The notes below the pieces were generated by a model, which was given only the letters and a program-made list of their open reading frames with translations, made no database searches and was not told the DNA's origin. The position numbers and the translations under genes were made by a program. Of a DNA stretch of 64,000 nucleotides, positions 13,996 through 18,037 are shown in pieces. The stretch is from Candidatus Krumholzibacteriia bacterium (GTDB lineage: Bacteria > Krumholzibacteriota > Krumholzibacteriia > JAJRXK01), in assembly GCA_041484665.1 (NCBI GenBank), contig JBGPIA010000004.1, positions 197,550 through 261,549 on the forward strand, written 5' to 3'. Every line of letters begins with the position of its first letter. The stretch's first letter is position 1.

Positions 13996-14581
13996 CCGTA
14001 CCGCGCTCGGCGGCGAAGAGAGGGACAAGCTCGCCGCCGGATACGTCGCCCAACGCGGCGGCCGACGCACGGGCCGATGGACTGGCCGACGCGCGGCCCC
14101 CACCACGCGCCCACCGCTCGCGCGTCGCGCCGCGACGGGGATGCTGCTGGCCTGCGTCGCGCTCGCGGCCTGCGGTTGCCGGCACGAGCGCGCCGCGAGC
14201 CACGCGCCAGCCGCGTCGCAGCTTGCACCCGGAGCGCAGGAGCCGGCCGCGCTGGCCGAGGCCTCCATGCAGGAATTCCGAGCGTACGTGATCGGTGATA
14301 CGGGCAGCGCGCCGCTGCCGCAGCGCGATCCATTCGCGCGCGGAGCCGCGCCGACCACTGGGGCCGCCGCGCCATCTCCCGCGCGCCCTGCGCCGGCGGC
14401 GGCGCGGCCGGCTCCCTTGCAGCTGCAGGGACTGCTCGAGCGGGACGGGGTCTGGGTGGCACTGATCGACGGCCAGCGCGTGCGCACGGGCGACGCGCTC
14501 GGCGAGTGGCAGGTAAAGCGTATCGACGCCGCAGGCGTCACGTTGCAGCACGGCGCGCTCCGGCGCCGGCTGGGCCTGTGA
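13982..14581 (+). CDS. PilP/GspB/C-like accessory protein, possible lipoprotein
   Basis: LAAC lipobox-like, RDPF motif, LQLQGL...ALIDGQRVRTGD..GEWQVKRID domain; true start may be downstream. Confidence 0.7.
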   Translation: MNQTDRTALGGEERDKLAAGYVAQRGGRRTGRWTGRRAAPTTRPPLARRAATGMLLACVALAACGCRHERAASHAPAASQLAPGAQEPAALAEASMQEFRAYVIGDTGSAPLPQRDPFARGAAPTTGAAAPSPARPAPAAARPAPLQLQGLLERDGVWVALIDGQRVRTGDALGEWQVKRIDAAGVTLQHGALRRRLGL

Positions 14582-14604
14582 CGCGTACTGGAAAGAAGGC
14601 AGGC

Positions 14605-15963
14605 ATGCGAACGGGATTGGCACCGACGGTCCTGGCCCTCGCGCTCGCGGCGCTGACTGCGCCCTCGACTCCGCAGCCGGCGGCGGCCGGGCCGCAGGGC
14701 GCGCCGGCCACGGCGCCACCGCGCGCCGCCGAACCAGCGCCCCCGCCAGCTGGGGCGCAGAGTCGCTACAACCTCCAGTTCCGCAGCGCCCGCCTGGACG
14801 CCATCCTGCGCGCTCTGGCCGAGGCGCACGGAGCCAACCTGGCCGTCACGGGCGAGCTGGACACCGTGATGACGGCGAACCTCAGCAGTTTGACGCTGCC
14901 GGACGCTCTCGAGGCGCTGCTGGGAGCGACCCGCTGGACGTGGACGGAGGAAGCCGGTCTCTACCGCGTGGTGCCTGGCGGTACAGTCGTGACGCGCATC
15001 GTCCCGCTGCGCTATTCCAACGCCGGGCAGGTCGCCGAAGTGCTGCGAGCGCAGCTGCAAGACGTGACGATCAACGCCGAGCCCCGCAGCAACAGCGTGC
15101 TCGCCAGCGGCCCGGTGCCGCGCGTGCGCGAGGTGGCGCGGCTGCTTGCGGACATCGACCACTCGCGCCCGCAGGTACGCATCCGCGCCGAGATGGTCGA
15201 GGTCAGCCTCACCGACTCCGATGTGCGCGGGGTCGACCTCGACGCGCTGCTCTCCGGACGGGACGCCGACGCCCGGCTGCGCACGGCCTTCGGCGACGTG
15301 CTCGACCCCTCCACCTTGAAGGTCCACACGCTGCAAGGCGACCTGGAGGTCACCGGGATCCTCGCGGCGCTGCGCGAGCGGCGCAAGGCGGCGCTGCTCT
15401 CCAGCCCGGAGATCACCACCCTCGACAACCAGCCCGCCCGCATCCACGTGGGCGAGCGTGTCCCCTACCAGCGCGCCACCACTGAGACGCAGACCGGCGC
15501 CACGTTGGCGGAGGTCGAGTTCCTCGACGTGGGTGTGAAGCTGGAGGTCACTCCTACGGTGAGCGACGACTCCACGCTCTACCTGCAGCTGCACAGCGAA
15601 GTGAGCGAGGTGCTCGATCAGAGCGTGCAGAACGTTCCGCGGATCGGCACGCGCGAGGCCGACACGCGCGTCATGGTCCGGCACGGCGACACCGTGGTGA
15701 TCGGCGGCCTGATCCGCGACAACATCACGCGCACCACGAAGAAGTTCCCGGTGCTGGGCGACATCCCGCTCCTGGGGCTCTTGTTCCGGCGGGACACGGA
15801 CGTGAAGACCAAGACCGAGCTGCTGGTCTTCATCCACCCCTGCATCCTGCCCGATCCCGCCGACCTGCGCCCCACCGCCAAGCAGCAGGAGCTGCGCGAC
15901 CGATTCACGCCGGAGGGCTATCGGGAGGACGCGGACGGGACGACGGGCGGTCGCAAGCGCTGA
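14605..15963 (+). CDS. Secretin (GspD/PilQ family)
   Basis: Signal peptide; QVRIRAEMVEV, PEITTLDNQPARIHVG, VIGGLI, PVLGDIPLLGLLFR, ELLVFIHP. Confidence 0.92.
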   Translation: MRTGLAPTVLALALAALTAPSTPQPAAAGPQGAPATAPPRAAEPAPPPAGAQSRYNLQFRSARLDAILRALAEAHGANLAVTGELDTVMTANLSSLTLPDALEALLGATRWTWTEEAGLYRVVPGGTVVTRIVPLRYSNAGQVAEVLRAQLQDVTINAEPRSNSVLASGPVPRVREVARLLADIDHSRPQVRIRAEMVEVSLTDSDVRGVDLDALLSGRDADARLRTAFGDVLDPSTLKVHTLQGDLEVTGILAALRERRKAALLSSPEITTLDNQPARIHVGERVPYQRATTETQTGATLAEVEFLDVGVKLEVTPTVSDDSTLYLQLHSEVSEVLDQSVQNVPRIGTREADTRVMVRHGDTVVIGGLIRDNITRTTKKFPVLGDIPLLGLLFRRDTDVKTKTELLVFIHPCILPDPADLRPTAKQQELRDRFTPEGYREDADGTTGGRKR

Positions 15964-16010
15964 GTAGCTTGTCGCGCGGCCGGTGTGAGTGGCTTGTCGC
16001 GCGGCCGGTC
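15961..16010 (+). repeat. 25-bp tandem duplication starting at the secretin stop codon
   Basis: TGAGTAGCTTGTCGCGCGGCCGGTG / TGAGTGGCTTGTCGCGCGGCCGGTC. Confidence 0.85.
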
Positions 16011-16117
16011 GGGGGAATGGCCCGCCGGGCTCGGGCGCCCCGCAGGCCCGCAAGACGCCGGAAAACGCGGGGGCTCCGTGTCGAGCCCAAGCGCACCCAG
16101 CCTCCCCGGCGGGGGGT

Positions 16118-16146
16118 TTGACAGGCGTGGATCGGCAGGGTAAAGT
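16118..16146 (+). promoter_or_regulatory. Near-consensus sigma70 promoter
   Basis: TTGACA-17 bp-TAAAGT. Confidence 0.8.
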
Positions 16147-16152
16147 CGGCTT

Positions 16153-16246
16153 GGGACGAGTCGCAGGTGGTCCCCCGCGGGGAAGGCCTCGCGGGGGCCA
16201 CTTTACGCACCAAGGGGTTCGCTACATTGCCCCTGCAACCCGTCCC
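16153..16246 (+). ncRNA. Unclassified structured ncRNA candidate (three-way junction)
   Basis: Starts at the expected +1; 5'/3' ends pair (GGGACG/CGUCCC); ~15-bp inner hairpin; GGGG-UUCG...CCCC arm. Confidence 0.55.
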
Positions 16247-16310
16247 CGCGCCCGGTCCCCCGGGGCCGGAACCTGCTGTGACCGCCTGCCGGCCGCCCTT
16301 GCAGCCGCGG

Positions 16311-16571
16311 TCACTCGCTCGTTTTCGGGCTTCCCCACCGCGCAGCCGCCGCCGCGATCCCCAGCGCCGCGAGCGCCCATACCCAGATGATGGCACCTGC
16401 TCCCACGCCGTAGGTCAGGAAGGCCGCGTGGGCCGTTGCGCGATTGAATTCCGTCAAGATGGCCGGGGGGACCGTCTTCTGGAAGATCGAGAAGAACCAC
16501 TGGCCAAGTATGATTCCGATCACCTCGCTGCCGACGAGCAGAGCGAGCGCCGCGACGAGCTTGCCTCTCAT
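16311..16571 (-). CDS. Small two-TM membrane protein
   Basis: 86 aa, GGAG RBS, two hydrophobic helices, coding-like codon pattern. Confidence 0.75.
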   Translation of the reverse strand: MRGKLVAALALLVGSEVIGIILGQWFFSIFQKTVPPAILTEFNRATAHAAFLTYGVGAGAIIWVWALAALGIAAAAARWGSPKTSE

Positions 16572-16867
16572 GGGGATCTACTCCAACCGATCGTGACTGG
16601 CAGCTCGCTGCGGCAAGGAGCCCTCGGCCGGCCTGACTGGCTCCTCCATCACCGTCCGCAAGCGCATGCCGGTATCCTGACGTGAACCGTTCCCTGGGCC
16701 CCGGTCCCCGTCGCCCGCCCCACTCTAACCCTGCGGTCGCGTTCTGTTCCACTGGTGCTTGCCGGCGATTGTCCCGGCAGAATGCCCCCTTGCGAGCGCG
16801 TGGTGCGGGCGGCCAGTCCGTGCGTGGATGCCGCTCCCCGTCGCAGGACAGGTCGCCGATCCGGATC

Positions 16868-16883
16868 TGTGATCTAGCTCTCA
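16868..16883. promoter_or_regulatory. CRP-like binding site
   Basis: TGTGA-TCTAGC-TCTCA versus TGTGA-N6-TCACA, in a divergent intergenic region. Confidence 0.45.
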
Positions 16884-16941
16884 TGGGCGAAAACGTGGGA
16901 GAATCCCCTCAGGGGTGCATGCTCCGACCCCTGGGCCCCAG

Positions 16942-16977
16942 TCGGCGGCGCTGACCGTATCGGCGGCGCTGACGGTA
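16942..16977 (+). repeat. 18-bp tandem repeat
   Basis: TCGGCGGCGCTGACCGTA / TCGGCGGCGCTGACGGTA. Confidence 0.8.
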
Positions 16978-17023
16978 GCATCGCGACGACGGTGCTGTGT
17001 CCTATCACCGGGGAGGACTCCCG

Positions 17024-18037
17024 ATGGACTGGAACAAACCTCTTGGCGCTTGCGACTCTTTGCTCCCGCCGACGGGCCGGCGGGCTCGCCGGCTCTTGCC
17101 CGCGGCGACTGCCCTCTTCGCTGTGGCCCTGTTGCTCTGCCAGGCGCCCGGCGTCGGCCGGGCTCAGTCCGTCACACTGGCGGGCCTGTGGCCCAATGAG
17201 GACGGTCGCATCTGGAATTACGATGCGGTCTACCAGGAGCTGGGCGGCCCGCCGGTTGCGTTCCGCGCCAGCTTGCTCTTCGATGGGTCCGCGCCGATGC
17301 CGGGCGGCGTTACCGTGCAGAACCTGAAGGGAATCGTCTCCGGTCTGGCACCGCTCGCCGCGACGGGCGCACGTCCAGGTGACGTCGCTTTGGCGGGGCT
17401 CTCGGGCTTCCAGCGATCGCTGTGGATCGCGCGACCGGACCTGCGGCCCGCGCTGCAACGACGAATGGCAAGCACAGCGGCCTTGACGGAGGTGCGGTGG
17501 CCGTTCGTCCTGCTGGGCCCGGCGCAGCTCGCCGACGGTGTCGGTTTCTCGAAGACCTCCTCGCAGGTCGGGATCTGGCGCGGCGAAATCGCCAACTGGT
17601 CATGGTGGTGGCTGCTCGACAACCTGACTGTCGGGGCTCGCTTCGACCAGCAGCTGGTGCCCGACCTCGCCTCCAACGTGTATCTCCACGCTGAGGTGAA
17701 GCAGATCCTCCCCCAGGCGACGCTTCCGAGCGGGACGTTCAACAACGTCCTGGTCATGGAGTACGTCGTCGATTACGGCCAGCAGACCATCACGGACGAG
17801 AGTGGCCACCTGATCGGGACGGGCCGCTATGAGACCCGCGGGACGATCTCCTTCGCGATGGGGGTGGGGCCGATTCACTCCGACGAGGAATTCGTCGTTG
17901 CCGAGCTCGACTGCCCCAGCGGGTGCCCGCCTCCACACGCCCCGGGCGAGGTGCTGGCGCAGGGTGAGCTGACGCTGCGCGAGCCATCGGTGCCCGACGC
18001 GCGCAGGAGCTGGGGCGAGCTGAAGGCCCGGTACTGA
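17024..18037 (+). CDS. Secreted hypothetical protein ending in SWGELKARY
   Basis: GGAGG RBS; signal peptide (ALFAVALLLC...GRA|Q); beta-rich body; terminal SWGxxKxxY motif. Confidence 0.85.
   Translation: MDWNKPLGACDSLLPPTGRRARRLLPAATALFAVALLLCQAPGVGRAQSVTLAGLWPNEDGRIWNYDAVYQELGGPPVAFRASLLFDGSAPMPGGVTVQNLKGIVSGLAPLAATGARPGDVALAGLSGFQRSLWIARPDLRPALQRRMASTAALTEVRWPFVLLGPAQLADGVGFSKTSSQVGIWRGEIANWSWWWLLDNLTVGARFDQQLVPDLASNVYLHAEVKQILPQATLPSGTFNNVLVMEYVVDYGQQTITDESGHLIGTGRYETRGTISFAMGVGPIHSDEEFVVAELDCPSGCPPPHAPGEVLAQGELTLREPSVPDARRSWGELKARY

Follow-up and report, generated by a model that had tools for sequence, protein, structure and literature searches.

Behind a pilus operon of a Candidatus Krumholzibacteriia bacterium, a near-consensus σ70-type promoter is followed by a 94-nt sequence whose ends are complementary. 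Does this sequence encode a structured RNA, on which of its strands does it work, and does it belong to a family that is already catalogued? Catalogues of structured RNA families cover uncultured phyla poorly. Our analysis of the locus, which lies in a 64,000-nt stretch of DNA termed here the window, indicates that the element is probably a real, uncatalogued small structured RNA, two copies of which are known.

Table 1. Positions of the element, its parts, and its neighbors in the window
Feature	Position	Strand	Remarks
Secretin (PilQ/GspD-like), last gene of pilus/T2SS-like operon	14506..15963	+	Neighbor only
24-nt tandem duplication spanning the stop codon of the secretin gene	15961..16009		Absent at orthologous loci
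σ70-type promoter	16118..16146	+	TTGACA, 17 nt, TAAAGT
Possible 3-bp hairpin with twister-L4-like loop	16146..16159	-	Straddles -10/+1; competes with outer closing stem
Candidate small RNA with its two ends paired	16153..16246	+	From fold and promoter position; +1 deduced
Inner closing helix P1, 5' strand	16163..16166	+	Pairs with 16233-16236
Variable hairpin P2	16167..16201	+	~15 pairs in the window, 4 in L216; base UGGUC..GCCA kept
Invariant core	16203..16229		11 nt, 4 variable nt (GGGG in the window, CCCC in L216), 12 nt
Closing stem, 3' arm	16232..16246	+	Holds UGCAAC, partner of GUCGCA (16160-16165)
GC hairpin	16252..16269		U tract absent on both strands; not seen as a shared feature
86-aa hydrophobic protein	16311..16571	-	Neighbor only; convergent

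Genomic context

The genome (5.45 Mb, 69.5% GC, 93.65% complete) is the only one of its genus in the collection. The element resides between the secretin gene and a gene for an 86-aa hydrophobic protein, an ORF ending at 16311 that is convergent, as had been predicted. This protein is without a Pfam or NCBIfam family, and its comparison with the Atlas yielded unnamed clusters only, below 0.9. Homologues of its gene occur at seven loci in 6 of 40 relatives, where they sit inside unrelated operons, and neither the element nor such a promoter is present at any of the seven. The genes beside these homologues, named by eye, are DUF4097-like, hydrogenase-maturation-like, or otherwise unrelated. Behind orthologous secretin genes (56-61% identity), a convergent gene follows directly in 4/4 cases and the element is absent. 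Because it is missing from both sets of loci, the element belongs to neither neighbor.

A housekeeping-type promoter abuts a stable fold

The promoter carries TTGACA at 16118-16123 and TAAAGT at 16141-16146 on the forward (+) strand. Its predicted near-consensus character is confirmed, with 10 of 12 consensus letters matched. Two promoter-like sites are seen within 15000-18000, compared with 0.1 in shuffled sequences. The genome contains 88 instances of the pattern TTGACA-N16..18-TANNNT where 1.6 would be expected; the spacing of TTGACA/TANNNT pairs peaks at 16-18, and several tRNA genes are preceded by the same pattern. Because of this excess, the appropriate spacing peak, and the position before tRNA genes, we regard the promoter class as real and as the housekeeping class of this organism. 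Promoter spacing would place +1 at or next to G16153, and this expected start coincides with the first base of the closing stem.

On the forward strand, 16153-16246 has a predicted folding energy of -56.1 kcal/mol (z -4.9), which is equaled by none of 200 shuffled sequences. Its z value is also the best among 86 windows downstream of promoters, a set that comprises the 88 promoter sites minus two that are too close to a contig end. The closing arms (16153-16167 and 16232-16246) are complementary at 13 of 15 positions, with two A-C mismatches, and the fold contains a long hairpin, a linker, and a GGGG/CCCC hairpin. The architecture given in the original prediction is therefore present, beyond what chance would produce, and so is the second hairpin downstream. 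The element occurs once in the genome; low-depth pieces of four DNA read sets show no variant within it.

A probable homologue on a metagenome contig

A scan of 241 million metagenome records with the linker and loop letters returned four stretches, three of them distinct. One, L216, is the start of an unrelated, lower-GC metagenome contig and retains 27 of 33 core letters. Among the other matches, L214 is a eukaryote-like leader, and L215 and L217 represent a single AT-rich stretch in duplicate. L216 has a 4-nt spacer as in the window, and its hairpin has UGGUC at the base. All four P1 pairs differ on both sides between the two sequences, and P2 has only four pairs in L216, with its closing pair changed from G-C to C-G. 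By a hand alignment with one 1-nt gap placed after the data were seen, these amount to five stem pairs altered on both sides. The GGGG/CCCC hairpin, in contrast, has lost or gapped 4/6 of its pairs. The GUCGCA/UGCAAC helix encloses the core in the window and lies downstream of the core, around other hairpins, in L216. The first letters of L216, GTCGG, are those that end the -10 box in the window; its own promoter region would lie beyond the end of the contig.

How often would such agreement arise by chance? For features chosen after the match had been seen, the estimates are 0.006-0.03 for the sequence extension alone, 0.03 for TGGTC upstream, and 1.6e-4 for the second helix. As an empirical null, the best of 53 distinct viral matches to the 3' half of the core kept 7/11 letters of the 5' half, and the best of 30 distinct matches to the 5' half kept 6/12 letters of the 3' half. 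Against homology, the shared P1/P2 fold lies ~9 kcal/mol above the best fold of L216, and the forward-strand fold of L216 is no better than those of shuffled sequences (z -0.1 to -0.55). Judged by its letters and paired changes, L216 is very probably a true homologue of the window element; we place this confidence no higher because the features of L216 were picked post hoc.

The 1059 nt of L216 that were examined contain no gene of the 86-aa type. A peptide shared by the two cores was rejected, as the frames there are only short or overlapping. Behind its core, L216 has more hairpins (85-142 and 197-279), one domain of which is closed by the GUCGCA/UGCAAC helix. These hairpins include two overlapping long inverted repeats, and ~870 nt of the contig are without a clear gene.

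Comparison with known RNA families

The window produced no match to Rfam at gathering scores (weak ones only, at E<=10), and ARAGORN found neither a tRNA nor a cloverleaf in it. With Rfam as the reference, the check on novelty returned no family match, and our literature search found no paper on the motif. Motif sets outside Rfam, such as the ZWD repository mentioned in PMC10085705 and candidate lists that supplement papers (for example PMC10690425), could contain it and would then remove the novelty.

A tRNA-like character had been proposed on account of a T-arm-like hairpin. The GGGG/CCCC hairpin is indeed present in the window, but its loop is 10 nt long and lacks GUUCRA. The forward strand has GGUUCG, but its GG is CC in L216, where the T stem is lost. 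With no T-loop word and with both ARAGORN and Rfam empty, the element cannot be read as tRNA-like. What is conserved is instead a core of ~30 nt, which a short closing helix and a hairpin of variable length hold in place. By eye, the reverse-strand core resembles the D arm of tRNA-Pro among the tRNAs of this genome. Anti-tRNA pairing was rejected, as 142 and 180 of 200 shuffled sequences did as well.

SRP RNA is accounted for elsewhere, by the sole RF00169 match in the genome (C2:672293-672391). A σ70-linked stable RNA with paired ends is reminiscent of 6S RNA, to which the 3' part has a superficial resemblance. RF00013 does not match the element, but it also missed the genome's own 6S RNA although 48/60 relatives have one, so a divergent 6S RNA was a real option. 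A profile built from the 6S RNAs of 30 relatives then found that copy in conserved gene order (C2:212230-212055, reverse strand; E 8.8e-25), and the divergent form was rejected. Whereas 6S RNA is a ~180-nt rod, the element is half this size and lacks a central bubble.

Bacterial Y RNAs (YrlA, YrlB, and Yrn1) are described in excerpts of PMC4201824 as having a GNCGAAN0-1G motif in the 5' part and a link to Ro60, with YrlA genes located within 4 kb of a Ro60 gene. The element resembles them in its size (80-130 nt in this class), its paired 5' and 3' ends, and a large internal loop offered to proteins. Near its 5' end, GUCGCAG is one letter away from the Y RNA motif, to which there are 0 exact matches. 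Unlike Y RNAs, however, it has no T and D arms. The Y RNA model RF02553 was negative, the genome (93.65% complete) has no Ro60/TROVE match, and the neighboring genes are of other families.

A pairing small RNA dependent on Hfq was also rejected, as a U-tract terminator is missing and Hfq was not found in the genome at 93.65% completeness. Neither invariant block has a perfect 12-nt complement elsewhere in the genome, and the 12-13-nt complementary matches that were found all use the variable letters. A sponge of the CsrB/RsmY type would need several GGA sites, and the forward strand has one. The hammerhead ribozyme is marked by the core words CUGANGA and GAAA; neither strand of either copy contains such words. 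The element is not a REP or MITE repeat, given its single copy. A retron noncoding RNA was rejected as well: the three reverse transcriptases (RTs) of the genome are all on other contigs and of group II intron type (C3:52848-53465, C12:72595-73380, and C12:6362-6973). One of these RTs is beside a tRNA gene and one is apparently truncated; two have Rfam intron matches, and the third was assigned by sequence.

Searches for further copies

BLAST against 40 relatives gave short matches only (best E 0.005), and pattern searches of other genomes of the phylum gave 0/200 and 0/207. The few matches obtained in further samples were rejected. In a second phylum sample, both matches (2/401) are coding, and a search of five genomes returned one of these again (1/5). 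A third sample gave 2/231, both inside long ORFs, compared with five control matches. Among the model searches, R1 matched 2/149 (E<=0.5), once in a terminator and once in a coding stretch, and gave weak matches in 39; model R2 matched 1/149 (E 0.26, opposite a gene), and model R3 matched 1/5, without the core.

Eight viral scans, two of them judged on the 80 matches listed for each, contained no match with both core halves, and BLAST against plasmids and phages returned nothing. None of 40 matches to the closing-stem pattern in the genome collection holds the core. At one locus (L070:1501-1592, in genome G023; E 2.6), the closing-stem letters GUCGYAG/CUGCAAC surround an ordinary terminator, probably by chance. 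This terminator is placed after a gene for an outer-membrane protein.

A nearly invariant 27-nt core occurs in both a sediment bacterium of 70% GC and an unrelated contig of lower GC, but in none of 207 other genomes of the bacterium's phylum. Such a distribution suggests a function that depends on the sequence and that is transferred or lost without regard to the neighboring genes.

Proposed function

The explanation that we favor, at a probability of roughly 0.45, is a stand-alone, σ70-dependent small noncoding RNA of a family without a catalogue entry that displays its invariant core to a protein. Housekeeping RNA polymerase would begin transcription at or near G16153, to judge from the promoter spacing, and the two ends of the transcript would pair into a stem that may shield them both. 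Because no U-tract terminator follows, trimming as far as this stem probably generates the 3' end. In the two sequences known, a nearly fixed loop of ~30 nt is held out by a short helix that tolerates changes of its letters and by a hairpin that tolerates changes of length. This loop is presumably the working face, most likely as a scaffold or decoy that is read by a protein. Pairing with mRNA is disfavored because there is no U tail, no Hfq, and no perfect 12-nt target. The element would have no relation to the pilus operon, and its distribution probably reflects horizontal gain or patchy retention.

That the element is an uncatalogued structured noncoding RNA, as originally predicted, is supported by the lack of an Rfam match, a promoter of a real class, and one probable homologue with compensatory changes. 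The best fold among 86 begins at the expected +1, and L216 combines five pairs changed on both sides with a core that is mostly kept. Against this stand the reliance on two sequences, the pair counts from an alignment whose gap was set after the data, and the ordinary stability of L216, in which the shared fold is not the best one. The structure of the core on the opposite strand, described below, also argues against it, as do the lack of a partner protein and the absence of the element from 207 other genomes of the phylum. If the core is protein-bound, it would represent a new RNA-protein pair; if it is self-cleaving, it would represent a new ribozyme class.

The working strand and a resemblance to twister

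The forward strand had been assumed to be the working strand. We lean slightly in this direction, since the stem lies exactly behind the promoter and the first five letters of L216 match the end of the -10 box, and we consider the reverse strand less likely. However, the reverse strand is predicted to be no less stable when folded (-58.1 kcal/mol, z -4.6). The two A-C mismatches become G-U pairs there, and the closing stem has 15 unbroken pairs. A reverse-strand RNA could be a compact three-way junction (P1, core hairpin, and variable hairpin) followed by a small hairpin with a twister-L4-like loop. Located in the 3'-terminal part of the transcript from the 86-aa gene, it would be catalytic (self-cleaving) or would protect the 3' end, and the σ70 promoter would make its antisense copy. 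We treat this reading as a serious rival, if unlikely as a whole, and several observations agree with it.

The invariant core is unstructured on the forward strand and forms a G-U-rich hairpin on the reverse strand (three G-U pairs, -5.6 kcal/mol, p 0.027) that has the variable letters in its loop. The two-sequence consensus energy is -24.9 on the reverse strand versus -21.8 on the forward strand, and on the reverse strand RNAalifold, without guidance, finds both P1 and P2 together with the core hairpin and an extra hairpin. The small hairpin across -10/+1 has a 3-bp stem and an 8-nt loop in both copies, with 6/8 loop letters alike (p 2.6e-4 in a fixed register). It counts for the reverse strand because a forward transcript from the promoter would not contain it. 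However, this likeness can also be explained as an alignment with a 2-nt indel, the hairpin competes with the 15-bp stem, and its loop octamer occurs eight times in 3-bp stems in the genome. Moreover, the promoter of genuine class is on the forward strand, whereas none is found on the reverse strand near either copy.

Excerpts of PMC5408937 define twister by P1, P2, P4, and two pseudoknots. The reverse-strand loop in the window is a weak match to Twister-P5 (RF02684), with 10.6 bits versus a cut-off of 37.6, and the element is not among the four Twister-P5 matches of the genome at E<=10. With its short stem, this loop matches the 10-nt twister L4 consensus, from which L216 differs at 4/10 letters; by our own mapping, the letters kept in L216 (CCCA and GC) are those that form pseudoknots in twister (PMC5408937, in excerpt). 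The reverse strand also has two AA-N4-GC words like that of the cleavage strand. Unlike twister, however, the window has no complementary P2' with GA-GGG and no P1, and P4 would lie outside the junction. L216 has a four-pair P2 with GA and 2/3 T1 letters, and the corresponding P2'-GA-T1 is absent in the window. The four variable letters show no covariation with the loop. Excerpts of PMC10085705 report no promising non-circular permutations of twister. Membership in twister was rejected for the missing P2'-GA-GGG strand and the low score; a related catalytic fold would still be conceivable. Elsewhere in the genome, C12:116213-116310 (reverse strand) contains two adjacent weak Twister-P5 matches, the better with 21.2 bits (E 0.1).

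Under a more specific proposal, the element would represent a new class of small RNAs that catalyze a reaction or bind a ligand, and would combine a three-way junction, the invariant 27-nt core, and a twister-like pseudoknot loop. Its helix would lie around or beside the core (nested in the window, downstream in L216), and the housekeeping promoter would make its exact antisense copy. We regard this reading as a long shot.

Other explanations

The small RNA with a displayed core must also be weighed against the absence of any selected function. A lineage-specific promoter followed by GC-rich hairpins, together with a chance match in L216, could account for the data: at 72% GC hairpins are favored, relatives have no copy, and a single match extended afterwards from 241 million records, even with 27/33 letters, is not rare at such a scale. 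However, the fold is the best of 86, several features of L216 agree in register, and a strong promoter without a gene behind it needs a reason, so that we find this explanation rather improbable.

Quite improbable, too, is a signal at the level of DNA or single-stranded DNA, or an orphan RNA from a mobile element or RNA-guided system (retron, bridge RNA, or omega RNA) that has lost its protein. Such an origin would suit the patchy spread, the absence behind 4/4 orthologous secretin genes, the 24-nt duplication nearby, and the four variable letters between fixed flanks, which resemble a guide slot. The reverse strand also folds as DNA (z -3.15). However, the element is single copy, the three RTs look like those of group II introns, and the one weak IS110 match is on another contig, with no such gene beside either copy in the sequence seen.

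Least probable is an antisense partner of the convergent 86-aa membrane protein, as suggested earlier, here in the form of a cis-acting, antitoxin-like regulator that would pair with the 3' untranslated region. The layout is convergent, the promoter is strong, and no terminator separates the gene from the element. However, the fold stops 65 nt before the stop codon and overlaps no coding region, 0/7 homologous loci in unrelated operons and none of the L216 sequence seen pair such a gene with the element, and the invariant core would be left unexplained.

Two other σ70 promoters in the genome are followed by very stable folds, at C1:282149 (reverse strand, z -4.25) and C20:38626 (reverse strand, z -4.02).
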